Shown: positions 1 through 15,100 of the stretch, in pieces
How positions within the stretch are numbered: position 1 is the first letter of the stretch
Layout of the letters: every line of letters starts with the position of its first letter
Origin: Oculatellaceae cyanobacterium bins.114
Lineage (GTDB): Bacteria > Cyanobacteriota > Cyanobacteriia > Elainellales > Elainellaceae
Reading direction: 5' to 3'
Assembly: GCA_033764315.1 (NCBI GenBank)
Contig: JANRJA010000090.1
Coordinates: forward strand, 1-25,810
DNA: 25,810 bases
Program-made: the position numbers and the translations under genes
The notes under the pieces: generated by a model
What the model saw: the letters and a program-made list of their open reading frames with translations, nothing else
Databases searched by the model: none
Told to the model about the DNA's origin: nothing

Positions 1-61
1 CCTGCAACGCAAGAAGCGGCTGTTTTACAGACAGTTGCCCACGCTGATAGGCGAGCCGACC
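1..61 (-). tRNA. trnY: tRNA-Tyr(GUA), 3' end cut by the window edge
   Basis: Minus strand reads GGTCGGC TC GCCT ATCAGCGT GGGC A ACTGT CTGTAAA ACAGC, then a long variable arm CGCTTCTTGCG and the start of the T stem GCAGG. The D loop lacks GG. Confidence 0.8.
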
Positions 62-98
62 TATGTTTGGTTTTTGCTGCTCAAGGATGAGCAAGATT

Positions 99-175
99 TG
101 GCAGTGCCGACGGGAGTTGAACCCGCAAGCATCGACTTGAAAGATCGACGGCTTTACCCATTTGCCTACGGCACC
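99..175 (-). tRNA. trnE: tRNA-Glu(UUC), CCA encoded
   Basis: Acceptor GGTGCCG/CGGCACT-G-CCA; anticodon arm TCGAT CTTTCAA GTCGA; T arm GCGGG TTCAACT CCCGT. Confidence 0.92.
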
Positions 176-187
176 AAACTTTGAGAT

Positions 188-320
188 TTCTACAACGTGC
201 AAGTTTGAGAAGCTGTTTTTTCAGCCTCCAAGTTGGCGGAGGCTGTAGGAGTTGAACCTACTTCGCTGTTTAGGCGAGTGACCAGTATGTAGGCTTCTCG
301 GATGAGGGCACACCGTAGAA
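188..320 (-). ncRNA. Circularly permuted tRNA-mimic RNA, Y RNA (YrlA)-like
   Basis: The ends pair over 13 bp (TTCTACGGTGTGC/GCACGTTGTAGAA), then GAGAAGC/GCTTCTC. These stems enclose a hairpin TCGC..GCGA, a T arm GTAGG TTCAACT CCTAC, and an acceptor-like stem AGCCTCC/GGAGGCT closed by the loop GCCAACTT. Confidence 0.65.
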
Positions 321-391
321 CGCACAGACGAGGATTTGAACCTCGAACAACAGTTTTGGAGACCGTGATGTTGCCGTTACACCATCTGTGC
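321..391 (-). tRNA. trnW: tRNA-Trp(CCA), CCA end not encoded
   Basis: Acceptor GCACAGA/TCTGTGC with G73; anticodon arm ACGGT CTCCAAA ACTGT; T arm CGAGG TTCAAAT CCTCG. Confidence 0.92.
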
Positions 392-393
392 AT

Positions 394-468
394 TGGTCGC
401 AGCGGCGGGAGTCGAACCCGCAATGACCAAGTTATGAGCTTGGGGCTTTGCCATTAAGCTACGCTGCA
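394..468 (-). tRNA. trnM: tRNA with CAU anticodon (Met; elongator, initiator or Ile2 not resolved)
   Basis: Acceptor TGCAGCG/CGCTGCG-A-CCA with U1-G72; anticodon arm CCAAG CTCATAA CTTGG; T arm GCGGG TTCGACT CCCGC. Confidence 0.88.
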
Positions 469-473
469 ATGAT

Positions 474-548
474 TGGACTCCAGGGAGAGAATCGAACTCT
501 CGCTAGTTGGTTTTGCAGACCAACGCCTTCCCACTTGGAGACCTGGAG
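474..548 (-). tRNA. trnC: tRNA-Cys(GCA), CCA encoded
   Basis: Acceptor CTCCAGG/CCTGGAG with U73 (Cys identity) and CCA; anticodon arm TTGGT CTGCAAA ACCAA. Confidence 0.92.
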
Positions 549-551
549 ATT

Positions 552-633
552 TGGTGGAGATGTGGGGAATTGAACCCCAATCCTGCAACCGTCCGTTTGT
601 TGGTTTCGGAGCAAGTGATGCCAATCCATTCCC
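552..633 (-). ncRNA. Mini RNA resembling the tmRNA tRNA-like domain, with no anticodon arm and no tag ORF
   Basis: Reads GGGAATG GATTGGCATCAC TTGC..GCAG GAT TGGGG TTCAATT CCCCA CATCTCC A CCA. It has G3-U70, A73, encoded CCA and a stemless D loop like tmRNA TGGnnTCGAC. Confidence 0.6.
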
Positions 634-638
634 ACGAG

Positions 639-712
639 CGAGGATGACAGGGATCGAACCTGTGACCACTTGTCTCGGAAACAAGCACTCTCTCCATCTG
701 AGCTACATCCTC
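639..712 (-). tRNA. trnR: tRNA-Arg(CCG)
   Basis: Acceptor GAGGATG/CATCCTC; D arm GCTC..GAGT; anticodon arm CTTGT TTCCGAG ACAAG; T arm ACAGG TTCGATC CCTGT. Confidence 0.9.
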
Positions 713-714
713 AT

Positions 715-791
715 TGGGAGCCTTGACGGGGGTTGCACCCGCTTCTTTCTGGCTGAGAACCAGAACGACTTCTCTATTCGTCCACAAGGCT
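715..791 (-). tRNA. trnE: Atypical tRNA-Glu(CUC)
   Basis: Acceptor AGCCTTG/CAAGGCT-C-CCA; anticodon arm TCTGG TTCTCAG CCAGA. The T loop TGCAACC and the D loop without GG are non-canonical. Confidence 0.7.
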
Positions 792-854
792 ATACGGCTT
801 TTTTAGTTACATAGTTAGTGTTTCGCACTAACCATTAACCAGTTGAAAGCTACA

Positions 855-930
855 CGGGGATGATGGGATTTGAACCCACGATCTTTCGCTCGACAGGCGA
901 CTGCTTTGAGCCAGGCTAAGCTACACCCCC
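855..930 (-). tRNA. trnD: tRNA-Asp(GUC), first gene of the array
   Basis: Acceptor GGGGGTG/CATCCCC with G73; anticodon loop CTGTCGA; T arm GTGGG TTCAAAT CCCAT. Confidence 0.92.
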
Positions 931-949
931 AAAGGTGGCATTTATGAAG

Positions 950-982
950 TTTTCAAGGTTCAAGTTTGCTGATAAATCAGCA
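950..982 (-). promoter_or_regulatory. rrn-type antitermination boxB hairpin plus boxA
   Basis: Hairpin TGCTGA TTTA TCAGCA (967-982) followed by GAACCTTGAAAA (950-961), which matches cyanobacterial rRNA spacer boxA, about 20 nt before trnD. Confidence 0.7.
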
Positions 983-986
983 GAAA

Positions 987-1181
987 TTAGAGAAAGCAAC
1001 GCCGTTCCAAGTAATAAGTTGACTGGAGAACAGATCGTTCTTTTGTGAATTGAATGAAAGATAAATTTCCCTGATTGCATGAGTTCTCTTGAAGTGGCGT
1101 GGAAATGCCAGAAACATGAGTGAGTAAGAACTCTAAGAGCTTCAAGAGACCATTGCTTCTAGTAAGGGAATGAGTGTTCAT
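987..1181 (-). CDS. Putative leader peptide of the tRNA array (64 aa)
   Basis: ATG preceded by a GAGGAG Shine-Dalgarno; ungapped paralogous ORF at 11031-11141. Confidence 0.4.
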   Translation of the reverse strand: MNTHSLTRSNGLLKLLEFLLTHVSGISTPLQENSCNQGNLSFIQFTKERSVLQSTYYLERRCFL

Positions 1182-1204
1182 TGGATTAGCTCCTCTGTGT
1201 CTTA

Positions 1205-1262
1205 TCTCATACTACAAATATAATACAACATACTACAAGATGTCGAGGGGGTACTACAACTT
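1205..1262 (-). promoter_or_regulatory. tRNA array promoter with phased TGTAGTA operator repeats (TrcR-like)
   Basis: tactaca/taataca at 1210, 1221, 1231 and 1252 overlap a -35 TCGACA (1241-1246) and an AT-rich -10. The same layout recurs at 11169-11217. Confidence 0.7.
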
Positions 1263-1329
1263 TTTGCGAGAAGGGAGAGAACGCCTATCAAAGAAATACT
1301 TGTATCGCTCTCTCCTGATGGACTTGCCC

Positions 1330-1743
1330 CTAAGCTGGAGAGGAAATGTAGACTTCGCTCATCTGCCACAGTTTGTAGATGGAAACGCTCAATCGACCAC
1401 TCATCACGGTCAAAAACATCCCCTCGTGAGCTTCTTTGCTTTCAGCCACCCAATTACCGCTGAAGTTAACTTCTACAAAATCGTTATCGACAGGAAAGAC
1501 AGTTGCGCTGGGGTTGCATTCCTGCTGCAACACTATTTCCAACCCCTCCAGTTCGGGTAAATCCGCAGGTAATAGAAAGGAGGCATGACCGGGTTCGACA
1601 TACAGCGGTGAGAAGCAGTTCCCCCTTCGGGGTAAACGCTCTAACCGCATTGCCAGAAGCACTCGCTGAGCAATCAACAATTCGGGGTTGATCATGGTTC
1701 GTTCCATAAACAGCCCAACATCGGTGTAGTTCAGTTTCAACAT
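1330..1743 (-). CDS. alr0857-family protein
   Basis: MLKLNYT start, VEPxxASFLLP and GxW motifs; lies directly downstream of an HNH gene, the usual cyanobacterial pairing. Confidence 0.8.
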   Translation of the reverse strand: MLKLNYTDVGLFMERTMINPELLIAQRVLLAMRLERLPRRGNCFSPLYVEPGHASFLLPADLPELEGLEIVLQQECNPSATVFPVDNDFVEVNFSGNWVAESKEAHEGMFLTVMSGRLSVSIYKLWQMSEVYISSPA

Positions 1744-1770
1744 CGGTCGTGCCTCCTTTCTGGCTTGAGG

Positions 1771-2301
1771 TCAGGTGTCAACAGGGTGCTGTTCTTTCCA
1801 AAACTGCTCAGCGAAGGCGATCGCTGGATGCATCGGTGCTTTGGGTTTGGTTTTGAGTACCATTCCGGTTTCATGTAAGAGGCGATCGCCCTTGCATGAA
1901 TTACACTTCTCACAGGCAGTCACCACGTTGTCCCAGGTATGGGTTCCACCCTTTGAGCGGGGAATGACATGATCCAGCGTCAAATGCTTGGTGCTACCGC
2001 AGTACTGACAGGTGTGGCTGTCGCGGCGAAAGACTTCCCGACGATTGACTGGAGGTACTTTCCAATGCCGTTCTGGATTGCCACTGGTCAACCGGATGTG
2101 GTCAGGGATTTGTAGTACGACACTGGGAGAGCGTACTTCCCATTGCTGGGTGCTACTGAACTCCAGAGTCTCTGCCTGTCCGGTAACAAGGAGCACGATC
2201 GCCCGTTTCAGGTTGATCCGCGCCAGTGGCAGGTAGTTCTTGGAGAACACCACCACCTGATTTTGGAGTATTGGAATTCTCTGTCGCTGCTCGGTCTGCA
2301 T
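1771..2301 (-). CDS. HNH endonuclease (McrA-like)
   Basis: CQYCG..LTLDHVIPRSKGG..WDNVVTACEKCNSCKG motif; start placed at ATG 2301 behind a GAGGAG Shine-Dalgarno. Confidence 0.92.
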   Translation of the reverse strand: MQTEQRQRIPILQNQVVVFSKNYLPLARINLKRAIVLLVTGQAETLEFSSTQQWEVRSPSVVLQIPDHIRLTSGNPERHWKVPPVNRREVFRRDSHTCQYCGSTKHLTLDHVIPRSKGGTHTWDNVVTACEKCNSCKGDRLLHETGMVLKTKPKAPMHPAIAFAEQFWKEQHPVDT

Positions 2302-2314
2302 CAGTTTTCTCCTC

Positions 2315-2354
2315 AAAAAATAACCCCCGCCTCTGAACACCAGGAGCGGGGGTT
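2315..2354 (-). terminator. Intrinsic terminator / attenuator upstream of the HNH gene
   Basis: Stem AACCCCCGC..GCGGGGGTT followed by ATTTTTT, between the leader ORF stop and the HNH Shine-Dalgarno. Confidence 0.75.
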
Positions 2355-2376
2355 GGGGAAGTTGATATGGCTTTCC

Positions 2377-2595
2377 CTATGTCGGTGTCAGGATTGCCCT
2401 GCACCTCCCGCTGCTAGTGGGTTGATCCGGATTAAGCCATCCGGCGATATTGCTATCAATGCCTTCACCGACGGATTTACCGCCGCTAAACCGATACGTC
2501 CCCTCAAACGCAAACAGCACCAATGCTGTGCCTAGACCGTGTTGAGGTCGGCATTGCATGGCACTGGCTAAAGTGGCGAGAAGGATGTGTATCAT
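2377..2595 (-). CDS. Putative leader peptide / small protein (72 aa)
   Basis: ORF between the TGTAGTA-box promoter and the terminator; no recognisable domain. Confidence 0.45.
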   Translation of the reverse strand: MIHILLATLASAMQCRPQHGLGTALVLFAFEGTYRFSGGKSVGEGIDSNIAGWLNPDQPTSSGRCRAILTPT

Positions 2596-2602
2596 GGAAG
2601 GC

Positions 2603-2664
2603 TGTAGTACTTGTATTACAAATCCGAATGCTTACATACTACACTTGTAGTATTGGATTGTCCA
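2603..2664 (-). promoter_or_regulatory. Promoter with TGTAGTA operators (TrcR-like)
   Basis: TGGACA-17 nt-TAGTAT on the minus strand; boxes at 2603, 2612, 2637 and 2646, including the inverted pair TACTACA-ct-TGTAGTA. Confidence 0.65.
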
Positions 2665-2730
2665 CCCGGGAATTGAAATTTAGGATGTTCGGTTATGGAT
2701 ACACGCAAACGGGGTAGCACTTCGGAAATG

Positions 2731-5700
2731 TTAGGTGCGTTCCAGCAAGGTTGAAACCGCCTTCACTAATGTTTCTGGCTCAACAGGTTTGGTAAGGTGC
2801 CTTTGAAATCCAACCTGGATTGCCCGCTGTTGATCGATTTCGGCGGCATAGGCAGTCAGCGCAATGGCTGGAATCCTTCCACCTTGCTCAAATGGTCGTG
2901 AACGAATCTGCTGCAGCAGCATATACCCGTCCATCTCCGCCATGCCAATATCACTGACAACGACATCAGGAATTGATTGTTCCAAGGCTTGCAAGGCTTC
3001 TAAACCAGAAGCAACGGCGGTCACGGTTGCCCCACTTTGTTCTAACAAGAAAGCTTGAAACTCACGAGTATCCGGCTCATCATCCACCAGTAAAATTTGA
3101 ATACCCGTTAGTGGTAGCCCAACACCACTTTGAGGTTGGCTGGGTTCAGACACAACCGCTCTCTGTTTCATCGTTGGCAATTGCACAATAAAGGTTGCGC
3201 CTTGCCCTTCCCCCTGGCTCTCTGCCCATACGTCTCCCCCATGCATTTGCACAATTCGCCGGACGATCGCCAGCCCCAGTCCTAACCCACCAAACTTGCG
3301 AGTGGTTGATCCATCTTCTTGTCGGAAGTACTCAAACACATGCGGCAAGAACTGGGGATTGATGCCTTTACCCGTATCGATGACTCGAATTTGAGCTAAG
3401 CGATTGCCAAGCAAACTTCCTTGGGAATCAAGTTGCCGCAGTTCAACCATCACCTGTCCGCCATTGGGTGTGAATTTAACGGCATTGGTGAGCAAATTCC
3501 AAACCACCTGCTGCAACCGGGCGGCATCTCCAGAGACAAGGGCAATGTCTGGAGCTAGATCCAGGGTGATCTGAATGGTCTTTGCTTCTGCGGCTAACCG
3601 CACCGTTTCCACCGCAGCAGAAATGACATAGGGCAACCTGACGGGTGTAACGGTCAAGGACAACTTGCCGCGCATAATGCGGGAAATGTCGAGCAAATCT
3701 TCGATTAATTGCGTCTGAAGTTTGGCGTTTCGTTCAATAGTTACTAATGCTTCTTGTTGTCGGACTGGATCGAGCTTGCCGTTTTGCAGTAGTCGAGTCC
3801 AACCGAGAATGGGGTTGAGGGGCGATCGCAACTCATGGGATAGCACCGCCAAAAACTCGTCTTTGATCCGGTTCGCCCGTTCGGCTTCTTCCCGTGCCGC
3901 TTGTTCTTGCTCTAAAAGCAATTTGCGTTGGGCTTCGGCTTGTCGCTGCTCAATTAAATCTGCCGCCTGCCGCGCCAGCAAATCGAGGAATCGCAGTTCG
4001 CGATCGCTCGATCGATAATGGGTACGCCAGTGGGTGGAAACCATACCAATGGGCTTGCCCGATCGCGAGATCAAGGGGGTAGACTGAGCCGAGAGCAGCC
4101 CAACTTCGACATGCATTCGCATTGTTCCATCAGGGTCTTCGCTGGCGGGGACATCAAAATCAACGAAGCTGCGAATGTTGCTCCTGAGCGCAATGCCACA
4201 GGGGGTGTTAGAACTGGCGTTCACCCGATAGAACTGGTCAGTCATCGTTCGGTCAAAGCCCTGGGTCGCCAGCAGCAACAAATCTTGCGTCGTTTCATCT
4301 AGAATTTGCACCGTTCCGGCATCGGCATGGGTGAGAGCAATGGCGGCTGCCATAATCTCTTGATAGAGTGCCTGAATGTTCTCCTCGGTGGCAAGTCGGG
4401 CACTCAGTTCACGCAACAGTTGAGTATCTCTGAGGTCAGCGGCGATCGCAGCTTCGGTTTGTTTGCGCTCAGTGATGTTAGCAAACAGGGCGGCAACCCG
4501 ATTTTGACCGGGCGCACCACTGGGAAAGGCATAAATGTCAAAGATGCCATTCAGCGAGGGAACATCGGCTTCAAATCGGATGGCTTCCCCGGACTTCGCC
4601 ACTTGCGCGTAAAGGTCGATCCACTGCGGTTCAAAGTTTGGTGCAAGTTCGAGAATCGTTTTTCCAGCCGCATCGGCTAAACCGCACTGCTGCTCAAACG
4701 CCTGATTGACATCAAGAAACCGATAGTCGATTGGTTTGCCGTTGGCATCAAACAGCAATTCAAACAGGCAAAACCCCTGGTCGATCGACTCAAACAGCGA
4801 TCGATATTTCTCCTCTGATTCGCGTAAAGCTGTATCTGCCCAATACCGCTCGATAAAATCATCCGCCATCCACGCGAGCAGGTCAATCAACCGGAGTTCG
4901 TCGTCTCTAGGACGGTGGGGCTGCGAAAACTGCGTACTCAAGACGCCGATCGCCTTACCGTTGCGGTTCATGATCGGCGTGGACTGGGTTGCCCGGATGC
5001 CCTCAGCAGCAGCCACTGCCCCCGCCTCGGTGCCTTCCAGACCGGGATAACCAATCGTTTCCTCAATGATGAACCGTTGGCGACCCACCCGCGCTCGATC
5101 GCAGCCTTCCTTGAACCCCTCATATCGAAAGTGGTTGATAAACGGGCTATCGTCTGAGTAGCCGCGCCAGGTAAACATTTCCAACCGAGTGCTGTCGTCG
5201 TTGACCAACTGCACACAGCCTCGCTCGGTATGCGTAAACTCACAGGCAACCGCCAGAATTTCGTCAAGAGCGGTCTTCAGATCGGGCCCAGTGGCGAGCA
5301 TAGCGTATAAGTCATAAAGCCGCTGCATTCCCGCTAAGTCTGCCGCCAGTCGCGCTTCTGATTGCCGCCGGGCAGCTTCGGCACGGGCACGTTCAACGGC
5401 TGCCCAGGTGCGTTCAGCCACTTCTTCCACCAAGGCAATCTCCTCTGATGTCCATTTTCGGGGACTGGCTGAGTGAACTGCCAAGCCTGCCACAAACTCA
5501 CCCTGCTTCACGAGCGGAACACCGATGTAGGCGGCAATTTGAACGCCAGCGTAAGCCGATCGCTGATCTGGGGATAGACGAAAGTCGGTCGTCACATCGG
5601 TTGAAATAGCCGTCCGACCGCTGCGATAAGTTGCCAGCAATTCTGCCCCAAAGGACTCAATTGGATAACTTCCTCGCGATGGCTCCACGCCGTTGACGTA

Positions 5701-7653
5701 ATCCTGTTCCACAACATAATCTGCACCGCGCACCTCAAAGTAGGTGACTCGGCTGGTCTGCAAATGTTCACCCAGCACTCGATTAGCCGTTGCTTGAATG
5801 GCGATCGCGTCTGTCAATGGACGTAGCGCGTCGTTCAGAGTGACGAGGAAAGCATCGCGATCGCCATTGCGCCGAATAATTTCTTCAGCTCGTTTGATCT
5901 CAGAGAGGTCATAAAAATAACAAACTACACCATAGCGACCATCGGATAGGGTAATGCGATGAATTTGCCAATCGTAGGACTGAATTTCTGCAATATCTGC
6001 TCTGGGTTCCACGATCGGCGGCGAGTAGAAGGATTCACCCGTAGCAAGGGTATGGCGAAAGTGATGAATGGCTTCGGTGGCAAAGGGTTCTTGCCAGATG
6101 GTTCGTAGGGCTTCGGCAAGATCGCGCCCAATCAACGACCCAATATTAAAGGCGGCGATCGCGGTTTGGTTTGCCTGCTGGAAACGAAAGTTTGCATCAA
6201 TCATGTAAACCCCAAAGGGGGCTTCCGAAACCAGAGCAGAGAACATTTCCTGATTCTGGCGCAGGGCACTCTCAACCCGAGTTCGTTCCAGCTTTGTCCA
6301 GATGCGGTTTGCCAATTCGCGCATCAAATAAATTTCATCGCTACGCCAGCTGTAAGGGGTTCGATGATAAATACCGAGGGTAAACTTCCACTCGTCATTT
6401 CGGATCAGTGGAACGTTAATAAATGAACCAATTTTAAGGGCTGCAAATCGTTTTGGATCAGCAATGCGTGAGTCGGTTTTGACATCTCGAACAATGATGG
6501 TTTGCCCAAGTTTGGCAGTCTGAAAAAATTCGCCTGTGACAAATTCTGATAGACGATAACTGCTGACTAAACTGGGCACATCTGTTTGATGCCAACTGTG
6601 AGCGATCGTTGCTAGATCGGCACTCTCGTTAACTTCAACGAATGCACAGTTAGAGACGTGAAGATAACGGTTCAACTGTTCGCCAACAATTTGGATGATA
6701 TCTTCGACACAGGTTGCCTCCACCAGATTTTGAGTCAAATTGGAGAGAAATTCGGCACTCAACTCTGCCTGTTTGCGAACCGTCACATCGCTCGCGGCTC
6801 CCAACCACTCAACAATTTCATTTCGGTCGTTTAGGAGCGGAATCGCCCGCGAAAATGTCCAGCCGATCGTGCCATCTAATTGAATCACCTGATGTTCTAG
6901 CTCAAAGGTGCTCTTAGTGCGAATAGCTTGTTCGATCGCAGCCCTGACCCGCGTCCGTTCCTCCACAGGAATGTACTGTTCAAACCAAGTCTGCTTGGGT
7001 TGCTGAATAGTAGCAAGAAAGTTTTTGCCTTCGAGGAGATACATCTCGCGCCAATCTGCGCTCATTTTGTACACGGTGTTTGAGCTAGCAGCAGTAAATA
7101 GGCGGAACTCTGCTTCCGATGCCCGCAGGGCTGCTTCCGTTTGCTGCCGTTCATTTTCAGCGAGCTTTCGATCTGTGATGTCGCGTGAAATGCACAACAG
7201 CCGCTCAACCCGCCCATCAGCACCTAAAATGGGGCTGATTTTGTTATCCCACCATTTGGGTTCGCCATTCATCGTCGGACAATAGCCTTGCAGGGAACAC
7301 ACCTCGCCTGCTGCTGCCTGGGCGATCGCATCCATAGCCGCTTGCTGTTCCTCGTCCTGCCAAAAGTTGACCCAGAAGGTATTGAGTAAGGGCGTAATAT
7401 CCTGAATGCCAAGCAACTCCTGTCCGCCCCGATTCATGAACAGGATACGCCCCTCTAAATCCAACATCTTGATACAGTCCTCGCTGCTATCTAGAATTTG
7501 AAGGGTCTGGATGTCTAGCACTGAGTTGGGGGAGCGATCGGGGTAATCTGCTGCCTTTGCTGTTGTGTGATCAGGGGGTTCAGCAATGTCTTGAGAACTA
7601 TCTTGAGACAACCCTTTAGTTGAGGAAGTCGAGCGGCGAAGAGGGTGCGTCAT
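2731..7653 (-). CDS. Multi-sensor hybrid histidine kinase (multiple PAS and GAF domains, HisKA, HATPase, REC)
   Basis: 1640-aa ORF; H box FLAVLSHELRSPL, N box NLLTNAVKFT, G boxes DTGKGI and GGLGLGL, C-terminal receiver (LLVDDE..SDIGM). Confidence 0.95.
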   Translation of the reverse strand: MTHPLRRSTSSTKGLSQDSSQDIAEPPDHTTAKAADYPDRSPNSVLDIQTLQILDSSEDCIKMLDLEGRILFMNRGGQELLGIQDITPLLNTFWVNFWQDEEQQAAMDAIAQAAAGEVCSLQGYCPTMNGEPKWWDNKISPILGADGRVERLLCISRDITDRKLAENERQQTEAALRASEAEFRLFTAASSNTVYKMSADWREMYLLEGKNFLATIQQPKQTWFEQYIPVEERTRVRAAIEQAIRTKSTFELEHQVIQLDGTIGWTFSRAIPLLNDRNEIVEWLGAASDVTVRKQAELSAEFLSNLTQNLVEATCVEDIIQIVGEQLNRYLHVSNCAFVEVNESADLATIAHSWHQTDVPSLVSSYRLSEFVTGEFFQTAKLGQTIIVRDVKTDSRIADPKRFAALKIGSFINVPLIRNDEWKFTLGIYHRTPYSWRSDEIYLMRELANRIWTKLERTRVESALRQNQEMFSALVSEAPFGVYMIDANFRFQQANQTAIAAFNIGSLIGRDLAEALRTIWQEPFATEAIHHFRHTLATGESFYSPPIVEPRADIAEIQSYDWQIHRITLSDGRYGVVCYFYDLSEIKRAEEIIRRNGDRDAFLVTLNDALRPLTDAIAIQATANRVLGEHLQTSRVTYFEVRGADYVVEQDYVNGVEPSRGSYPIESFGAELLATYRSGRTAISTDVTTDFRLSPDQRSAYAGVQIAAYIGVPLVKQGEFVAGLAVHSASPRKWTSEEIALVEEVAERTWAAVERARAEAARRQSEARLAADLAGMQRLYDLYAMLATGPDLKTALDEILAVACEFTHTERGCVQLVNDDSTRLEMFTWRGYSDDSPFINHFRYEGFKEGCDRARVGRQRFIIEETIGYPGLEGTEAGAVAAAEGIRATQSTPIMNRNGKAIGVLSTQFSQPHRPRDDELRLIDLLAWMADDFIERYWADTALRESEEKYRSLFESIDQGFCLFELLFDANGKPIDYRFLDVNQAFEQQCGLADAAGKTILELAPNFEPQWIDLYAQVAKSGEAIRFEADVPSLNGIFDIYAFPSGAPGQNRVAALFANITERKQTEAAIAADLRDTQLLRELSARLATEENIQALYQEIMAAAIALTHADAGTVQILDETTQDLLLLATQGFDRTMTDQFYRVNASSNTPCGIALRSNIRSFVDFDVPASEDPDGTMRMHVEVGLLSAQSTPLISRSGKPIGMVSTHWRTHYRSSDRELRFLDLLARQAADLIEQRQAEAQRKLLLEQEQAAREEAERANRIKDEFLAVLSHELRSPLNPILGWTRLLQNGKLDPVRQQEALVTIERNAKLQTQLIEDLLDISRIMRGKLSLTVTPVRLPYVISAAVETVRLAAEAKTIQITLDLAPDIALVSGDAARLQQVVWNLLTNAVKFTPNGGQVMVELRQLDSQGSLLGNRLAQIRVIDTGKGINPQFLPHVFEYFRQEDGSTTRKFGGLGLGLAIVRRIVQMHGGDVWAESQGEGQGATFIVQLPTMKQRAVVSEPSQPQSGVGLPLTGIQILLVDDEPDTREFQAFLLEQSGATVTAVASGLEALQALEQSIPDVVVSDIGMAEMDGYMLLQQIRSRPFEQGGRIPAIALTAYAAEIDQQRAIQVGFQRHLTKPVEPETLVKAVSTLLERT

Positions 7654-7666
7654 AGAACCTCCAGCG

Positions 7667-7900
7667 TCACTCTGAAAAGTATTTGACTAGCAAATCTTGA
7701 CCCGATTCGCCCATCTGGTATAGCAAGTGTTCAATCTGCTTCAAGGCAATGGGTAAGGGTTTGGTTCGTCCATTCTCCCAACGGTTGACACTTTGAAACG
7801 AAACCCCTAATTTCGCCGCAAACTTTTCCTGCGAAAGGTTTAGACGCTGCCGGGTTTCTCGTACGAGATTGGCTAACTGAAGCTGGTCGATGACAGGCAT
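7667..7900 (-). CDS. XRE-family HTH transcriptional regulator
   Basis: LSQEKFAAKLGVSFQSVNRWENGRTKP; start placed at ATG 7900; 13 bp upstream of the kinase. Confidence 0.88.
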   Translation of the reverse strand: MPVIDQLQLANLVRETRQRLNLSQEKFAAKLGVSFQSVNRWENGRTKPLPIALKQIEHLLYQMGESGQDLLVKYFSE

Positions 7901-8157
7901 AAGGCACAATAACAGCATTTTGATTAGCTATACCACCTGTTATAGCAATCATCCCTCTCCCTTAGGGCTTAGAGTTTCTACCCAAGGTTGCCCTGCTAGA
8001 ACCATTTTTAGTCAATCAGAAATTGAATTCATGATCGAATCAGCGTGGCGATCGCCTCTAGGCTTAATTTTGTATCGGTCATAAGTCGCCACACTACGTT
8101 GCGCTGTCATCATATAGTGGTGCTGGATCCTCACTTGCAGGTCTGCCAACTTGACCT

Positions 8158-8319
8158 CTAATAGCCACTATCTGCTACACACATTCCCTGGCACTTTATG
8201 CCATTTGTTGCTGTTCTTAAGCAGTGAGGACATAGGATCTTTTCAGTACCTAATTTCGGACGACTCCCGCCTTCATTTGTCTGCACTATTTCTGGTTCAA
8301 CCTGGGGATCGAGGGGCAT
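8158..8319 (-). CDS. Small Cys-rich ORF (53 aa), possibly the C-terminus of a disrupted longer gene
   Basis: Own translation: MPLDPQVEPEIVQTNEGGSRPKLGTEKILCPHCLRTATNGIKCQGMCVADSGY. A protein-like but stop-containing frame lies upstream (8320-8470). Confidence 0.5.
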   Translation of the reverse strand: MPLDPQVEPEIVQTNEGGSRPKLGTEKILCPHCLRTATNGIKCQGMCVADSGY

Positions 8320-8473
8320 AAAAATAACACTTTAAAGCTACCAACTTCTTCATTTTACAGCCCGATATAGAACTGCCATAGCTGCCAAGATTCGTGTTTA
8401 AACCATCCATAAAACGGGGTGATCAATCGCTGGGCAGTTCCTCTCACAAACCCTGCTAAATGCTCTGCTCATC

Positions 8474-8566
8474 TATAGCAGTCCTAAATCATTTGTGAAA
8501 TTAGGAGGTTGTGAGAGTCGCACCCCTCCGGGGTGCGACTCTCACAACCCATTTAGGATTGCTATA
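8474..8566. mobile_element. MITE with TA-flanked terminal inverted repeats and an internal hairpin
   Basis: TATAGCAGTCCTAAAT ... ATTTAGGATTGCTATA; perfect internal stem GGTTGTGAGAGTCGCACCCC/GGGGTGCGACTCTCACAACC; related copy at 25063. Confidence 0.8.
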
Positions 8567-8774
8567 GATAGGTTTTAATTCCTGCTTCCAGATCCTGTAG
8601 TGCAGTTTCCAGACTGGGGTAGCTATCCTTGCCTTCATAAATAGTGCCACCAAGATCGTATGCTCAGACAAAGGCAGGAATCATCTCATGCTGCCCAATT
8701 TCGATCCAGCCAATTTCTCTAACAAAACGTTGGATGATTGGATACTGTTTTTCAAAAGCAGTGAACTTTGACAT
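8562..8774 (-). pseudogene. Small hypothetical protein pseudogene with an internal TGA
   Basis: MSKFTAFEKQYPIIQRFVREIGWIEIGQHEMIPAFV*AYDLGGTIYEGKDSYPSLETALQDLEAGIKTYL*; the final stop is supplied by the MITE end. Confidence 0.65.
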
Positions 8775-8810
8775 TGGTGAAGTTCCCGCAGCGTAAAGGA
8801 AAACTGCTCC

Positions 8811-9146
8811 AACGAAATGACACGTAATCCTTTGCTTAAGCCAGAAAAGCTTGCAACTATTATTGAATAAAGGTTTCAGCCTCTAAGGCAACGAAATGAC
8901 ATGGAAATTCTCCGACGATCAAAGAAAACGCTAAAGCTCTTACAGGACAATAGTTTCGGGTAACTACTAACGAAATGACATTGATGTCTTCGATAGCTCC
9001 ACGAAATGACATTGATGTCTTTGGTTGGGTTTTCTTTAAAGATTGAGTGCTAAAAGACCTCAAAGCCTTACTCTATAGGACTTGGAGGTAAAGGACGGTT
9101 ATGACATTCATGCCTTCGGTTGTGACACTTATTCCTTTGCTCTACA
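8811..9146 (-). mobile_element. Tn7-like (TnsB-type) transposon end
   Basis: Terminal TGTAGAGC at 9146 (minus strand), followed by six same-orientation repeats of consensus AAGRCATNAATGTCAT(TTCGT); TGACA cores at 9123, 9102, 9007, 8976, 8897 and 8818. Confidence 0.65.
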
Positions 9147-9151
9147 TGCAA

Positions 9152-9991
9152 TCACAATTGTGGAGTGAATGAATATTCATGCCAATCACAAACAGGACGA
9201 TAGCCGATTTTTTGGTAGATAGAGTTTGAAGTGGGATTGGCTAAATCAGTAAATAGAAAACAGCTCTCGCACCCCTGCTCCAAAAGCTTCTGGCTTAAGG
9301 CAGCAACCCCTGCCGTTGCATACCCTTTGCGACGATATTCAGGGGGAGTGTAAACGGGGGCAATCCGAGCCGCTGTTGAGGAGAATTGCCGACCGCCAAC
9401 CATTGAAACGGGAACGCCATCCTCCCACAAATAGGTACTCTGACGCTTTAACTCAACCTCTACTCTCCGTTCAATTTCGTCATCGCTAACAATGTCAATT
9501 TCGGCGTTAAATGCAGCAAACCACTTCAATAACAAGGGGCGATCGCTTGGTGTTGCCAGTCTGAGATGCCCCTTAACGGTTGTAACAGGGTTTACCTGGG
9601 TTAACTGATAAATTCTTGACTCAACTCCTGTTTGATAGGATTGCCCGGTGAGGGTGTGCCAAATTTTCACAAATGTTTCAGCCTCAGCCACCAGCCCACT
9701 CACCCCTGATAGCTGCTCGTGTTGTAAGTCTTGAGCAATGAGATTTAAAGCATTCAAATCCTGCACGTTAGACAGCAATAAGCTATTGGGAGGCGTGCGG
9801 ATGGCGATCGCTAAGATCTCGCCACTGGTTTGAACAAGTGCCAGATAGGGCGGTTCAGGATAACGCTCTGGATAATGCAACAGTGTGTGCAAAACACCCA
9901 GCAACGCATTGTGCTCTGCCTCGTATTGCCGCAGATAATTTTGAGTGCATTGCCAAAACTCTTTAACGCTATCAAATTGATGGAATTGCAT
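9152..9991 (-). CDS. GNAT-family N-acetyltransferase
   Basis: C-terminal VYTPPEYRRKGYA..LFTDLANPTSNSIYQKIGY acetyl-CoA binding motif. Confidence 0.92.
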   Translation of the reverse strand: MQFHQFDSVKEFWQCTQNYLRQYEAEHNALLGVLHTLLHYPERYPEPPYLALVQTSGEILAIAIRTPPNSLLLSNVQDLNALNLIAQDLQHEQLSGVSGLVAEAETFVKIWHTLTGQSYQTGVESRIYQLTQVNPVTTVKGHLRLATPSDRPLLLKWFAAFNAEIDIVSDDEIERRVEVELKRQSTYLWEDGVPVSMVGGRQFSSTAARIAPVYTPPEYRRKGYATAGVAALSQKLLEQGCESCFLFTDLANPTSNSIYQKIGYRPVCDWHEYSFTPQL

Positions 9992-10002
9992 CTTCGCTAT
10001 CC

Positions 10003-10560
10003 TCAGTCTTGAATACTCATCACCTCTAAATACTGCGGTGGAACGTCATCCACAAGCCAGACTCCATTATCAGAACAGTAAAATGTGAACCCAGCCTGGT
10101 GCATGTTGGCAGCGGCGATCGCAAAAATCACAGGGCGACCATGCCGCATTCCCACCCTGTGAGCTGTTTCCACATCTTTAGACAAATGCACATGATGCCG
10201 TGACATCTTGAGTAACCCTGATTGCAGAATTGCAGGTACAGATCGTTCACCTGTTCCGTGATACAGCACATTCGGTGGAATTTGTGGTTGTAGTTTTAAA
10301 TCAACCTCAACACTATGTCCTTGATTGGCTCGAATCCGAGTCCTGGTTTCATCGAATGAGAATCGCTGCTTATCATTGTTAGAAACAATTTCTTCTAGCT
10401 CAGCACGAGTGATGGGAAATTGATGGGCGGCACAAGCAGATAATAGATCATCGACATTCACCCAACCCCCGATCGCCAGCGTCAAACCTAACCGTTCTGG
10501 CATGTGTCGGAGATGCTTGCTGAGGTATTTGCTAATTTTGATCTGCTGTGTCTTATCCAT
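10003..10560 (-). CDS. kptA: RNA 2'-phosphotransferase (Tpt1/KptA)
   Basis: SKYLSKHLRH, NDKQRF, IRANQGHS, LYHGT and RHHVHLS motifs; start placed at ATG 10560 after GGAGG. Confidence 0.95.
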   Translation of the reverse strand: MDKTQQIKISKYLSKHLRHMPERLGLTLAIGGWVNVDDLLSACAAHQFPITRAELEEIVSNNDKQRFSFDETRTRIRANQGHSVEVDLKLQPQIPPNVLYHGTGERSVPAILQSGLLKMSRHHVHLSKDVETAHRVGMRHGRPVIFAIAAANMHQAGFTFYCSDNGVWLVDDVPPQYLEVMSIQD

Positions 10561-10728
10561 GACATTCCTCCACTTTAATGCATCTCTTGGGCGCAAGTTT
10601 TAATAGGGTTATGAGATACTACCAATCATCACGCAAAGATCCCTGAATGGCGATCGCTGCCACAACTCCTACTTTCAATCTGTCGCTCATGACGATCAAC
10701 ATCTTTGGGAGCGATCGCAGCTCACCTT

Positions 10729-10805
10729 TGGGGTGACTGACGAGAGTTGAACTCGCTAACACTGGTGTCACAGACCAGCCCCTCCACCACTTCGGGTTCA
10801 GTCAC
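10729..10805 (-). tRNA. trnH: tRNA-His(GUG), CCA encoded, no encoded G-1
   Basis: Acceptor GTGACTG/CAGTCAC with C73 and CCA; anticodon arm CTGGT CTGTGAC ACCAG; T arm GCGAG TTCAACT CTCGT. Confidence 0.88.
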
Positions 10806-10807
10806 AG

Positions 10808-10881
10808 TGGATTCTGGTCGGATTTGAACCGACATCTTTCTGCTTGCAAGGCAGACGCTTTTCCAATTAAGCTACAGACCC
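10808..10881 (-). tRNA. trnA: tRNA-Ala(UGC) with a 1-nt bulge in the acceptor stem
   Basis: GGGTCTG against CAGAATCC (8 nt), G3-U70 and A73; anticodon arm TCTGC CTTGCAA GCAGA. Confidence 0.8.
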
Positions 10882-10927
10882 AAGTTTCGTCATTGGTCAT
10901 TGGTCTTGTTAGTACTGATGACTAAAT

Positions 10928-10972
10928 TGGTAGTCCTGGCAAGATTTGAAACCGTAACCCTCTGTTTGTAAG
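10928..10972 (-). pseudogene. trnV: 3' half of tRNA-Val(UAC)
   Basis: CTTACAA ACAGA GGGTT ACGGT TTCAAAT CTTGC CAGGACT A CCA; the 5' half is absent and the T stem is mismatched. Confidence 0.7.
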
Positions 10973-11016
10973 ATATTTTTGTAAGACATTGGTGGAGTAC
11001 TTGCGTGTGCTGCGCG

Positions 11017-11276
11017 GAAGATGAATTTTCCTAATTTAATGCATCTTCTTGAAGTGAAATAGAAGTGCCAAAGATATGAGTATATGAGAACTCAAAGAGC
11101 TTCAAGAGAGTCCTGTTTTTAGTAAGAGAGTGAGTGCTCATTGGATTACTTCTCCGTGTCTCATCTCATACCACAATCGTAATACAACGTACTACAAGGC
11201 GTCAAGAGAGTACTACACCTTTTTTTGAGGGGGGAAGAGGGCGATCGCTCAACAAATACTGGTATCGTTCTCTCCC
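11017..11276 (-). promoter_or_regulatory. Second copy of the tRNA array promoter/leader, with TGTAGTA boxes and a 36-aa leader ORF (11031-11141)
   Basis: Colinear similarity to about 1057-1315; -35 TTGACG at 11200-11205; boxes at 11169, 11180, 11190 and 11211. Confidence 0.8.
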
Positions 11277-11358
11277 AGCGATTTTGAGGTCAGGGTCAAC
11301 TGGTTGCTATTCTTTCCATTTAGGACTACTCTTTATTTCTTCGCTCTGCAACAGTAAC

Positions 11359-11848: not shown

Positions 11849-12120
11849 TTATGAATGCAACCGATAAACTTTTGGTGTTGTTCCGGTTAACTGTCGAAAC
11901 TGTTTACTGAGATGACTATGACTGTTAAACCCACACGTTAATGCAATATCTGTAACGGGGCACGTGGCTTTGCCGTTACCACAAGGGTCGCTCTGTTTCA
12001 ACAACTGCTTTGCTCGTTCAATGCGTTGTTGTAGTAAGTATTGATAAGGACTGATTCCCGTTGCTGCTTAAATTGGCGACTGAAATAAAATTCACTCATC
12101 CCTAACAACGAGGCTAGATC
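11849..12120 (-). pseudogene. AraC-family regulator relic (HTH domain only, frameshifted)
   Basis: DLASLLGMSEFYFSRQFKQ / frameshift / TGISPYQYLLQQRIERAKQLLKQSD..VTDIALTCGFNSHSHLSKQFRQLTGTTPKVYR; the N-terminus is missing. Confidence 0.85.
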
Positions 12121-12125
12121 TCGCC

Positions 12126-15100
12126 CTAAACTTTTTGACGCTCTAATAGCCTCAAAATGACCGTTAGGAGTTGAATAGGTTCGATGGGTTTAGAGATATG
12201 AATTTGAAAGCCAGCAGCTAGTGCCTGGAGGCGATCGCCCTCTCTCGCATAAGCAGTCAACGCCGCAGCGGGGATTTGTCCTCCTTGGTTGGGCGGGAGC
12301 GATCGAATGCGGCGAATCAACATGAATCCGTCTTCATCCGGCATTCCTACATCACTCAATAACACATCGGGCTGATGAATTTGCAGCAACTGCCAGGCTT
12401 CGGCGGCAGACGCCGCACTCACAACGGTTGCCCCATATTGCTCTAAAGCGACCTGCAAAAACTCGCGTGTGTCTTGCTCATCGTCAACCGCCAACACTTT
12501 GATGCCAGTGAGATTGAGGGCAGTATCGATCACCGTTTGGCGATGCAAGCCCTGGTGATTGGTTTGATGTTCTTTGTGAGCGAGAGGTAAGAGGGGAAAT
12601 TGAACTGTAAAGGTGGCTCCCTGGTCTTCTCCAGCACTGTCGGCGTGAATGTTGCCTCCATGTAACTCTACTAAATTTCGCACGATCGCTAATCCTAACC
12701 CCAATCCCCCTTGTGTCCGAGTGGTAGTTGAGTCTGCTTGTCGAAATCGCTCAAAGACATAGGGCAAAAAGTCTGGACTGATCCCTTTTCCAGTGTCGGT
12801 GACGGTGATTTGAGCGTAGGAGTGCATGGGCGACTGGGGTGTTGAATGCAGGAGTGGTCGAGTCGAGTCACTCCCGTTTCTTTGACCTATCCCCTCTTCT
12901 ACCCCCGCACAGACTAGTTCTAACTGCACCAGCACGGTTCCTCCAATGGGTGTGAACTTGATTGCATTAGAGAGCAAGTTCCAAACGATCTGTTGCAATC
13001 GTTCTGGATCACCCGAAACAAACTTTGCTTCTGGCGCAGCGTGAAATGAGATGGTAATAGATTTAGCCGTGGCAGCAGGGCGAATGGTATCGATCGCCGC
13101 TTGAATGCAAGGAAGCAAGTTGGTAGGACGCAAATCGAGCCGAATCTTGCCACGAATAATGCGTGAAATATCTAATAAATCTTCGATTAATTGAGTTTGA
13201 GATTGAGCATTGCGCTCAATAGACGCCAGAGCTTGATCTGTTTTTTGCGGATCAAAGGTTCGCGTGCGGAGTAGCCGTGACCAGCCCAAAATAGCATTGA
13301 GGGGCGATCGCAATTCATGGGAAACAACTGCCAAAAATTCATCTTTCATCCGGTTAGCGCGTTCCAGTTCCATGCGGGCTGCTCGTTCTCGTTCCAAAGC
13401 CTGTGCCCGTTCTTCAATCAATAATTTCTGGTCGTGAATATCGGTCGAAGAGCCAAACCATCTCACAATGTGACCTTCTTGATCATGACAAGGAATGGCT
13501 TGGGCGAGGTGCCAGCGATAGGCTTGATCACTGGCGCGACGAAGACGATGCTCTACCGTAAACAACTTGCCCAGTTGCGATGCTGCCGCAAAAGCCTGAA
13601 GCGTATTGGGCAAATCATCTGAATGGATAATCTGTTGCCAGCCCGATTCATGTGCTTGCTCCAGGGTTAATCCGGTGTATTCATACCAGCGTTGATTGCA
13701 ATATTCGTGATACTTATTCGGGAGAACTACCCAAAAGAGTTGGGGCATCGTATCTGCTAGCGTGCGAAACATTAACTCGCTTTCCCGTAGAGCCGCTTCA
13801 GTTTGTTTGCGAATAGTTTCGTCTTGCTTAGCTGCCGTAATATCGAGTACGGTTCCTGACATGCGGTAGGGTTTCCCAGTTTGGTCGCAATAGCACTGTC
13901 CCCGTGCCGACACCCAGCGCATTGTGCCATCCAACCAGAATGTGCGGTACTCCTCTTGAAATTCATCTCCATGTTGCAAGGCGTTGGTTGCAGCAGATAT
14001 GACGCGCTCGCGGTCATCGGGGTGCAGTGCGTTGATATGCCACTCATAGGTCACCCAAAAATCAGGTGGGAGTCCAAAAATCTCTTTACAGCGATCGTCC
14101 CAATCTAACCGTTGAGTATGTAGATTCCAATCCCAGATTCCCTGTTGTGCCCCTTTTAGGGCGAGTTGCAATCGTTCCTCGCTTTCTCGCAAAGCGGCTT
14201 CTGCCTGCTTGAGATGGGTAATATCGATAAAGGCTCCAATCACCCCGCGAATGTCTCCAGATTCTTGTTTCAGCGGCACTGCCTTGCCATATAGAAAGCA
14301 GATATTTCCATCTTCAAAGACAAATTCAAACTCACCTGAAGTGGATTGTCCAGTCCGTCCTGCCTGTTGCATGGGCAAGTCTTCAGGGGCAATATCGTGA
14401 CCCTTGTGTTGAATGCTGAATTGGAAGGGATATTCGCCATTTTCAGGAGTGGCTGTCATTACCGCATCGGGCGATCGCCGCATTATGTCATAGGCCGCGC
14501 GATTGGGGGTGACGTGATGACAGTGTGGGTCATGAGCGATCCACACGGCTGCCGGGACAGCCTCCATAAATGCTTCTAGCTCGGCGGCTCTGGCTCGTGC
14601 CGTTGCCTCACTTTGCTTGAGAGCGGTTTCTGTTCGTTTGCGCTCAGTGATATCAGTCGTACTTCCCACAACCCGCACCGCTTTGCCAACAGCGTTCCGC
14701 AAGATCAATCCTTGATCATAAACATCGACATAATTACCCTGTTGATTACAAACTCGATACTCCAGGGTGTAACGTTCCTCGTGCTGAAGTGCCTTTTGAA
14801 AGGATTGCATGACGACCTCAACATCCTCTGGGTGAATGCGGCTGATCCACCAATCGCTGTTAGCGTCGATCACCTCAGATGGAAAACCAAACAAGCTATT
14901 GGTTCCCTCGCTGCGCTCTACCCGGTCTTGTTCTAGATCCCAGTCATATACCAACGCATTAATGGCTGACATCGCTAAGCGATACCGCTCATTAGCTTGC
15001 ACCAACGCTTGTTCAGTTTGCTTGCGCTCTGTGACATCGACCCCAATTCCCCACGTTGCCCAACCTGGAATAGGACAGAGTGCCGAGATATTAGACCAGG

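Follow-up and report, generated by a model that had tools for sequence, protein, structure and literature searches.

In Anabaena (Nostoc) PCC 7120, a plasmid-borne array of transfer RNA (tRNA) genes, the trn operon, is repressed by a single chromosomal regulator, TrcR (PMC10272220). Wang et al. 2023 describe TrcR, encoded by all0854, as a ribbon-helix-helix protein with footprints on TGTAGTAT in the trn promoter and on ATACTACACTTGTATTAC in its own promoter, acting from a site at the -10 box; deleting it relieves repression of the array, asr0855-alr0856(HNH)-alr0857, all8564 (HNH), rtcB, rsgA and GNAT genes, among others, and translation inhibitors cause the TrcR protein to drop and repression to be lifted (PMC10272220). 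Nine-nucleotide direct repeats that overlap the -10 and the start of the trn operon, all8564, rtcB and dpsA were reported by Santamaria-Gomez et al. 2021, who found that transplanting two repeats makes a constitutive tRNA promoter chloramphenicol-inducible (PMC8421152). Here we analysed contig JANRJA010000090.1 of Oculatellaceae cyanobacterium bins.114 (assembly GCA_033764315.1), a stretch of 25,810 nucleotides (nt) that we refer to in its entirety as the window (contig C117 in our numbering). A preliminary description of this sequence had invoked the Anabaena system, which is described in print and fits the window (PMC8421152, PMC10272220).

We consider it very probable that positions 1–11300 of the window are a rearranged cyanobacterial island organised around an L-type tRNA array (L-array) and made up of three TrcR-repressed units, namely (i) the array, (ii) an HNH endonuclease gene with an alr0857-family gene, and (iii) kptA with a GNAT acetyltransferase gene. 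Its core is a known system, the TrcR regulon together with an L-array, in a new lineage and in rearranged form. The TrcR regulon and its inducible tRNA array were known from a single model strain, and the same operator logic is found here in a distant filamentous lineage related most closely, among named taxa, to Leptolyngbyaceae such as Kovacikia and Oculatella. Four elements are new beyond the main texts of both Anabaena papers: an operator conserved ahead of kptA, an array remnant fused to that gene, an array-linked trcR paralogue in decay, and a Y-RNA-like passenger in the array.

The word TGTAGTA has 10 exact matches in the window, compared with a mean of 0.90 and a maximum of 3 in dinucleotide-preserving shuffles (n = 100), none of which reached 10. 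Across the genome (6.64 Mb) it is under-represented, with 423 matches against ~926 expected by base composition. The preliminary description had placed the same boxes at three minus-strand promoters, and eight of the 10 matches do cluster in three groups on or around these promoters (P1, P2 and P3). Clusters of at least two matches within 60 nt number 14 in the genome, and three of them are on this contig. A consensus promoter scan predicted a -35/-10 pair in each of the three (1246..1217, 2664..2636 and 11205..11176), and the operators and matches are laid out as follows:

1209–1258, minus strand: promoter/operator P1, with TGTAGTA at 1252–1258, 1231–1237 and 1210–1216, a degenerate TGTATTA at 1221–1227 and a -35 TCGACA at 1241–1246
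1210, 1231 and 1252, all minus strand: exact TGTAGTA matches at P1
2603–2652: divergent operator P2, with the palindrome ATACTACACTTGTAGTAT at 2635–2652 (plus strand) and a second site at 2603–2621
2603 (plus), 2637 (minus) and 2646 (plus): exact TGTAGTA matches at P2
11169–11217, minus strand: promoter/operator P3, with boxes at 11211–11217 and 11190–11196, degenerate TGTATTA at 11180–11186 and TGTGGTA at 11169–11175, and a -35 TTGACG
11190 and 11211, both minus strand: exact TGTAGTA matches at P3
2111 (plus, within the HNH open reading frame) and 12030 (plus): the remaining two matches

On the minus strand P1 reads TGTAGTAC-N13-TGTAGTAT-gt-TGTATTAT-att-TGTAGTAT, the -35 being flanked by the first and second boxes. 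The Anabaena trn promoter has this layout too, with upstream repeats and then a tandem pair that covers the -10 and the transcription start (PMC8421152). P2 holds a perfect palindrome, ATACTACA-ag-TGTAGTAT, in agreement with the trcR promoter motif footprinted in Anabaena, and its minus-strand -10, TAGTAT, falls within a box. P3 and its leader are paralogous to P1 and its leader (77–78% identity over ~210–260 nt). The boxes match the published TrcR operator of Anabaena PCC 7120 and lie at or around the predicted -35/-10 of all three promoters; they are identical to the site footprinted with TrcR as well as to the 9-nt repeats whose transplantation brings chloramphenicol induction. At P1, P2 and P3 alike a box overlaps or adjoins the -10 and the predicted start, the arrangement of a TrcR-type promoter. 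Elsewhere in the genome, tandem boxes stand upstream of RsgA (TIGR00157, 165 bits versus a cut-off of 100), an MshD-like tandem GNAT, an ABC ATPase and an AAA-like protein, the same classes that appear in Table 1 of the TrcR paper (rsgA-type GTPase, GNATs, ABC ATP-binding protein and AAA ATPase; PMC10272220). The word was also met at contig C150:53100-53180, where TGTAGTAC and TGTAATAC repeats flank the start of a 517-amino-acid serine-recombinase-like open reading frame (ORF), which may be another use of the word or chance.

Behind P1 lie seven tRNA genes and, among them, two non-canonical tRNA-like elements, all within 830 nt:

1–931, minus strand: 5' part of the L-type tRNA array (ARAGORN calls and Rfam tRNA matches of 40–66 bits)
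99–175, minus strand: tRNA-Glu(UUC)
176–319, minus strand: structured RNA of ~135 nt occupying the tRNA-Trp/tRNA-Glu spacer, the second "mimic" of the preliminary description
320–392, minus strand: tRNA-Trp
394–468, minus strand: tRNA-Met
474–548, minus strand: tRNA-Cys
552–633, minus strand: tRNA-Ala/tmRNA-like element, the first "mimic", with an acceptor and T arm, encoded CCA, G3:U70 and a non-canonical body
638–712, minus strand: tRNA-Arg(CCG)
715–791, minus strand: tRNA-Glu(CUC)
854–931, minus strand: tRNA-Asp
932–1208, minus strand: trn leader (~270 nt), with a 64-codon ORF at 987–1181 and conserved hairpins

As judged by homology, this is an L-array: a dense, same-strand run of supernumerary tRNA genes with a conserved HNH gene upstream and an ancestry shared with other cyanobacterial arrays. 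Its gene order is that of the arrays on Kovacikia minuta plasmid pA and the Anabaena delta plasmid. As in Anabaena, the order starts at tRNA-Asp, and in the full Anabaena and Kovacikia arrays tRNA-Ala is at or near the 3' end (followed in Anabaena by tRNA-His). The array is cut at position 1 because the window is a whole contig. At the end of contig C69 are 24 more tRNA genes on the matching strand, and the last 204 nt of that contig are 83% identical to window positions 1–230; this may be either the continuation of the array through a duplication or a second array. The genome carries 69 tRNA genes in total. Among named organisms, units (i) and (ii) have their closest relative on plasmid pA (1.2 Mb) of K. 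minuta CCNUW1. The spacer between tRNA-Asp and tRNA-Glu(CUC) (792–853, minus strand) is predicted to form a stable hairpin (-18.7 kcal/mol, z = -4.3, with none of 200 shuffles as stable).

P2 heads, in order, a 72-codon ORF, a terminator, the HNH gene and the alr0857-family gene, and on its other side faces the remains of a trcR paralogue:

2302–2600, minus strand: structured HNH leader, with a 72-codon asr0855-like ORF at 2377–2595, four conserved hairpins and an intrinsic terminator at ~2315–2354
1771–2301, minus strand: HNH endonuclease, 176 amino acids, ATG at 2301, matching Pfam HNH_5 and HNH (PF01844/PF14279), orthologue of the array-linked all8564
1330–1743, minus strand: alr0857-family protein, 137 amino acids (NF045647, 117.3 bits versus an equivalog cut-off of 75)
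2695–2730, plus strand: stump of the array-linked trcR paralogue, with 12 native codons that run into the stop codon of a convergent kinase gene (19 codons overall)

The gene names given in the preliminary description (HNH, alr0857, kptA and GNAT) all agree with Pfam or NCBIfam matches, those of alr0857 and KptA above their cut-offs. The HNH protein is 84% identical to all8564 on plasmid delta of Nostoc PCC 7120 and 96.6% identical to the K. minuta pA copy. The likeness to the Anabaena regulon comprises the operator word, its placement over the -10 and start, an HNH gene upstream of the array, and the same ORF and terminator before HNH. There are also differences: the alr0857-family gene here comes after HNH, whereas in Anabaena it belongs to the chromosomal trcR locus; the island once had its own, now truncated, trcR paralogue; a 270-nt leader precedes the array here and none is present at the Anabaena trn promoter; and a second, apparently deleted array copy here would drive kptA and a tandem GNAT gene. 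A repeat translating to RLPRRGNCF(A/S)P, which is scattered genome-wide, lies in frame within the alr0857-family ORF (~1560–1640) and also in the trcR paralogue of relative G010.

The leaders admit another mode of control, in which ribosome stalling on the leader ORFs (72; 64 or 36; and 23 codons in the three units) would remodel the leader RNA and relieve termination, and the boxes would serve mainly as promoter elements. A strong intrinsic terminator sits directly before the HNH ribosome-binding site, the 3' part of this leader is almost invariant between the 72-codon ORF and the HNH start in all 12 aligned loci (RNAalifold consensus), and the same ORF and terminator occur before all8564 in Anabaena. 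A terminator also occurs alone, before an HNH paralogue on contig C105 and before an alr0857-like gene on contig C87, and upstream ORFs with ribosome-binding sites are present in all three units. However, transplanted repeats suffice for regulation in Anabaena (PMC8421152), and no terminator is predicted in the array leader. Nor do the leader ORFs carry a clear coding signature. Diversity at the three codon positions was 0.203/0.242/0.247 in the array leader ORF and a weakly coding-like 0.207/0.213/0.287 in the 72-codon ORF, compared with 0.109/0.061/0.38 in the HNH control. The array leader ORF is complete (63–64 codons with an ATG) in 10 of 16 aligned copies, broken or without an ATG in the other six, and absent in Anabaena. 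In the same 16 copies, a stem of this leader (CTCTTGAAG/CTTCAAGAG) changes to C-G in two. Control by the leaders thus appears unlikely as the main mechanism, and repression at the boxes is preferred. Conserved leader peptides, which had been expected, are argued against by the codon-position diversity and the broken ORFs; given the weak coding signal, we describe the HNH leader as a structured leader with a possible attenuator, its leader peptide being unproven.

Which protein would act at these boxes depends on the trcR copies. Homology of the stump to relatives stops at position 2730, where the kinase stop codon adjoins its codon 12, and the ORF of relatives at this place encodes at least 115 amino acids (the longest, at locus L009, 145). 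The preliminary description had suggested searching for a TrcR homologue, and an intact 111-amino-acid paralogue is indeed encoded at C87:23209-23544, with the exact published promoter motif upstream and, divergent from it, the terminator and alr0857-like gene mentioned above; by homology, it is the candidate repressor and a possible orthologue of all0854. It is conceivable that destruction of the linked trcR has left the island constitutive, with array-linked and chromosomal paralogues having separate operator specificities. Relatives retain two paralogues that are ~45% identical, the stump here keeps 12 native codons only, and the array-linked trcR of K. minuta likewise amounts to a 29-residue match, so that decay of this paralogue may be recurrent. 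However, the box sequences are the same at array-linked and chromosomal regulon promoters of this genome. Moreover, the single chromosomal TrcR of Anabaena represses a plasmid array without a trcR of its own (none lies between the upstream DUF2459 gene and the HNH gene), and we regard a constitutive island as very improbable.

Unit (iii) consists of what appears to be a shortened copy of the array, followed by kptA and a GNAT gene. P3 heads tRNA-Ala(UGC), a tRNA-His(GUG)-like gene, and then KptA and the 279-amino-acid GNAT:

10732–11160, minus strand: internally deleted L-array copy (mini array), with a leader copy, a tRNA-Val fragment, tRNA-Ala(UGC) and a tRNA-His(GUG)-like gene
11034–11141, minus strand: mini array leader ORF, 36 codons
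10923–10973, minus strand: tRNA-Val 3' fragment
10809–10881, minus strand: tRNA-Ala(UGC), 65.7 bits
10732–10805, minus strand: tRNA-His(GUG)-like gene, Rfam tRNA 48.1 bits (gathering score 29), with a cloverleaf fold and no encoded G-1
10619–10690, minus strand: upstream ORF in the 5' untranslated region (UTR) of kptA, 23 codons
10003–10690, minus strand: kptA with its 5' UTR, ATG at 10560, 185 amino acids
9152–9991, minus strand: tandem-GNAT acetyltransferase, 279 amino acids, Pfam Acetyltransf_1, 12 nt downstream of kptA

The mini array maps piecewise onto the Kovacikia array (promoter and leader 77.6%, tRNA-Val 3' end 88%, tRNA-Ala 96%), and Ala and His are the final two genes of the Anabaena trn operon; it is therefore read as an internally deleted array. 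It adjoins the kptA 5' UTR, and no terminator-like site was predicted between P3 and kptA. Within that UTR, an ORF of 20–23 codons with its own ribosome-binding site (MSD..K....V.AIA.Q) is conserved in this genome and in relatives G002 and G005.

KptA matches PF01885 (E = 1.5e-54) and NF002014 (288 bits versus an equivalog cut-off of 239), and it aligns end to end with the solved Tpt1 7kw8 (E = 3e-58) and also with 6e3a, the LRH, IRANQGHS and SRHHVHLS motifs being kept. These motifs contain what we take to be the catalytic Arg-His-Arg-Arg tetrad, and with the PTS_2-RNA family match they assign the protein, by sequence, to Tpt1/KptA. KptA/Tpt1 enzymes remove 2'-phosphates, and what is known of the family thus speaks against the end-healing role that the preliminary description had given to KptA. 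To our knowledge, bacterial KptA has no established in vivo substrate, and we know of no bacterial pathway that makes RNA with an internal 2'-phosphate. Compared with Tpt1/KptA elsewhere, the gene here is distinguished by a translation-stress operator in front of it, by its fusion to tRNA genes and by a tandem GNAT as its partner; the operator and the fusion indicate when and where a KptA substrate should be sought. The AlphaFold2 model of the GNAT (mean predicted local distance difference test score, pLDDT, 89.1) has as its nearest solved folds the two-domain GNATs 3iwg, VipF, glycine N-acyltransferase and MshD (template modelling score 0.6–0.67). RimI and AAC(6') were rejected as identities for this protein: the sequence scores were far under the model cut-offs, and the fold search gave a generic tandem-GNAT fold only.

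Since L-arrays spread horizontally and rearrange often, unit (iii) might be a product of mobile-element decay, in which the mini array is a dead remnant, kptA-GNAT is a neighbour by chance, and kptA has its own promoter or lies outside TrcR control. The mini array is an internal deletion product in which the tRNA-Val fragment is still present; recent rearrangement is indicated by the trcR stump and by the kinase and HTH genes, which lack synteny, between units (ii) and (iii); genomes of the family often hold several arrays or copies of the promoter; and a second kptA copy (C74:2108-2665, 81% identical) has neither TGTAGTA boxes upstream nor a GNAT partner. However, two perfect boxes and a -35/-10 pair are kept in P3, and the tRNA-Ala, at 96% identity to the array copy and 65.7 bits, has not decayed.

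The comparison of kptA loci also argues against decay, as kptA in many lineages has TrcR-type boxes of its own at differing positions. Among 80 cyanobacterial kptA loci, TGTAGTA was present within 500 nt upstream on the sense strand in 51 and on the antisense strand in nine. The sense boxes number 64 in 39.4 kb; at 1.62 per kb, they are ~29-fold denser than in the remainder of these loci, where each strand has 0.056 per kb. Their positions differ by clade: Nostoc has boxes at ~-29 and -51, Microseira at -73, Thainema at -52, and Leptolyngbya-like strains between -340 and -380. The association thus does not trace to one inherited promoter, with the reservation that the genomes are not independent. 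In relatives without the mini array, kptA is immediately preceded by canonical tandem boxes; these (TGTAGTATTTGTAGTAT or TGTAGTATGTTGTAGTAT) are found in G001, G005 and G011, and a single box in G017. GNAT directly follows kptA in 12 of the 80 loci, and the pair recurs in relatives. The proposal in the preliminary description that kptA-GNAT shares the regulon thus gains comparative support, and the synteny check that it had suggested found the pair, in relative G002, ~4.5 kb downstream of the array and on the same strand (order: array, endonuclease V, a 477-amino-acid vWA protein, a 450-amino-acid protein and kptA-GNAT, then a NADAR gene and another GNAT). We therefore hold decay to be improbable. 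In the preferred reading of unit (iii), an internally deleted array copy would have been joined to the kptA 5' UTR in place of the tandem-box promoter of relatives, leaving kptA still behind the same operator.

The mechanism we propose is that a ribbon-helix-helix TrcR, most likely the C87 paralogue because the island's own copy is a stump, would bind TGTAGTA(T) repeats over the -35, -10 and start and occlude the island promoters. During normal growth, this repressor would silence the supernumerary tRNA array, HNH-alr0857 and kptA with its tandem GNAT; upon impaired translation elongation, the TrcR protein would fall and all three units would be transcribed together, with read-through from P3 presumably reaching kptA. 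The single co-regulated translation-stress system of the preliminary description is thus supported as regards the operator, the gene identities and the boxes before kptA, but not as regards the end-healing role; its leaders do not behave like conserved peptides, the trcR of the island itself turned out to be a stump, and the defence against tRNA-cleaving toxins that it had proposed is at most a possible role.

Several observations count against this reading. The truncation of the island's trcR leaves repression to a C87 paralogue that is only 44.6% identical to the array-linked type, and the fourth box of P3 is degenerate (TGTGGTA). No exact sense-strand box was found in 29 of the 80 kptA loci, and the loci come from related genomes and are non-independent samples. 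Table 1 of the TrcR paper, a list of genes up >8-fold, does not include kptA (PMC10272220). Neither the junction at 2730 nor the P3-kptA fusion was found in any of 30 relatives searched, and from sequence alone an assembly chimera is possible. Finally, public sequencing runs gave two matches, one a metatranscriptome and one DNA, each covering 0.05 of the sampled words of the stretch. In the literature, the main text of neither PMC8421152 nor PMC10272220 mentions kptA, Tpt1 or "phosphotransferase" (in the supplements, the genes that respond more weakly to TrcR or chloramphenicol, or the Figure 6B neighbourhood genes, may include kptA), and our search retrieved no paper linking kptA or Y-like RNAs to these tRNA arrays.

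Besides tRNA genes, the arrays carry conserved non-tRNA passengers, one of which is built like a Y RNA and co-travels with a divergent Ro60 in other cyanobacteria. This RNA (176–319) is predicted to consist of a long terminal stem (rod), an inner stem, a small hairpin, a T-arm-like hairpin and a closed acceptor-like hairpin whose loop contains GCCA (-45.3 kcal/mol, z = -4.3, with none of 200 shuffles as stable). It is 83–97% identical in eight arrays whose leaders are 72–87% identical only. No Rfam match was obtained at E <= 10, and among plasmids blastn found it in K. minuta pA only. A covariance model (R1) matched in 17 of 151 genomes sampled across the class. The first eight close copies showed covariation in none of 37 pairs; once divergent members from the model search were added, 29 of the 37 pairs had compensatory changes, and 97.4% of cells paired compared with 32–46% in slid controls, in an alignment that was fitted to the model and hence favours the structure. 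The 34 aligned members share the rod signature (5' GUGCCC..AAGCYUACAUAC; 3' ACAGCUUCU..AACUUGCAC) and vary in the outer stem and head. The RNA thus belongs to a structured family backed by covariation. Copies outside arrays lie behind TGTAGTA boxes and before endonuclease V, an EF-Tu paralogue or, most often, a 477-amino-acid vWA protein. At L188 (G121:C54) the RNA lies behind boxes spaced by 21 nt and before the EF-Tu paralogue, and at L187/L199 (G138:C430) and L032 (G002) it precedes endonuclease V and then a Ro60-like gene.

The closest described counterpart is bacterial YrlA, whose 5' and 3' ends pair into a long stem that carries a tRNA-like domain; this domain includes a T arm and a closed acceptor-like stem-loop (Chen et al. 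2014, PMC4201824). Like YrlA, the RNA at 176–319 is predicted to have the order rod, small hairpin, T arm, closed acceptor-like hairpin and rod (PMC4201824), so that the stem and the tRNA-like head are both present. However, it has an A-rich linker in place of the D arm and belongs to no Rfam family at E <= 10, and its 5' motif is UCCGAGAAG, not GNCGAAN0-1G; the 5' internal loop reads CCCUCAUCCGAGAAGC.

The gene for the 477-amino-acid protein occurs in 13 of the 151 genomes, all of them among the 17 RNA-positive ones (0 of 134 RNA-negative genomes). Family RNA lies within ~1 kb upstream on the same strand at 10 of the 14 Ro60-like loci, and two of the four exceptions are at contig edges. In a profile comparison (hhalign), 59 sequences of this family aligned with five canonical cyanobacterial TROVE/Ro60 proteins over 418 columns (probability 97.8, E = 9.3e-13); 16 of the 59 members match Pfam vWA_Ro60, and the language-model neighbours of the protein are TROVE clusters. 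Weaker tests were less favourable: Pfam gave weak vWA matches only and no TROVE match, a shallow profile comparison was not significant (E = 0.16), a profile search of the PDB returned no match, and the quality of the AlphaFold2 model (pLDDT 56.8) was too low for a fold search. On this basis, with a clear answer from the deep profile alone, the protein of relatives appears to be a divergent Ro60 homologue with a TROVE ring and a vWA domain. In this genome (90.7% complete), neither the 477-amino-acid Ro60-like gene nor a TROVE gene was found, and three other RNA-positive genomes without the 477-amino-acid gene have a canonical TROVE gene. A Y RNA identity is thus well supported as a lead for the RNA family; for the copy in the window it is a possibility.

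The Salmonella rsr-yrlBA-rtcBA locus is an RNA repair operon. By analogy, both it and the present island may be viewed as stress-induced units that join tRNA-like non-coding RNAs with RNA-repair enzymes. They differ in that the regulator here would be a repressor, not RtcR, and in that the partner is a divergent Ro60, present in relatives only, that Pfam TROVE misses. We put forward tentatively, as an idea with somewhat less than an even chance of being right, that the 135-nt RNA is a cyanobacterial Y RNA and that L-array/TrcR islands are the counterpart of the enterobacterial Ro60-Y RNA-RtcB operon. Its partner would be a previously unrecognised divergent Ro60 family behind TrcR boxes, and the spare tRNAs, an alanine-identity minihelix, KptA with its tandem GNAT, and the endonuclease V and NADAR of relatives would complete one repressor-gated RNA damage response. 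Were this true, it would provide the first physiological setting for bacterial KptA, and confirmation of the Y RNA would link the response in cyanobacteria with the Ro60/RtcB repair systems found in other bacteria. Earlier Y RNA surveys discarded matches within tandem tRNA genes, relied on annotated TROVE proteins and found few Y RNAs in cyanobacteria (PMC4201824); if the Y RNA reading is confirmed, these filters would account for the low number.

For the other passenger (552–633), at least 20 distinct copies were present in the fetched arrays, with G3:U70 invariant and the pairs 6:67 and 4:69 covarying. Its score against Rfam transfer-messenger RNA (tmRNA) was 34.9 bits, under the gathering score of 47, and ARAGORN called it neither a tRNA nor a tmRNA. 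At Rfam E <= 10, only sub-threshold tmRNA and permuted-tmRNA matches were returned. A tmRNA was rejected, as the acceptor and T-arm ends alone align, there is no tag region, and the score is below threshold.

Between units (ii) and (iii), positions 2731–7918 (minus strand) encode a 1640-amino-acid PAS/GAF hybrid histidine kinase that carries a receiver domain, as well as an HTH_3 protein of 83 amino acids; no synteny with relatives was found for these genes, and they are therefore treated as passengers. The ~1.2 kb downstream of the GNAT gene (7919–9151) contains short broken reading frames only; G002 has the NADAR gene and second GNAT at this place, and no NADAR gene was found in this genome. 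Beyond the island, positions 11850–12130 (minus strand) resemble, by eye, an AraC-type C-terminal helix-turn-helix region without an ORF of at least 60 amino acids, and contain the tenth TGTAGTA match. A GNAT of 141 amino acids is encoded just upstream of P3 (11359–11784, minus strand).

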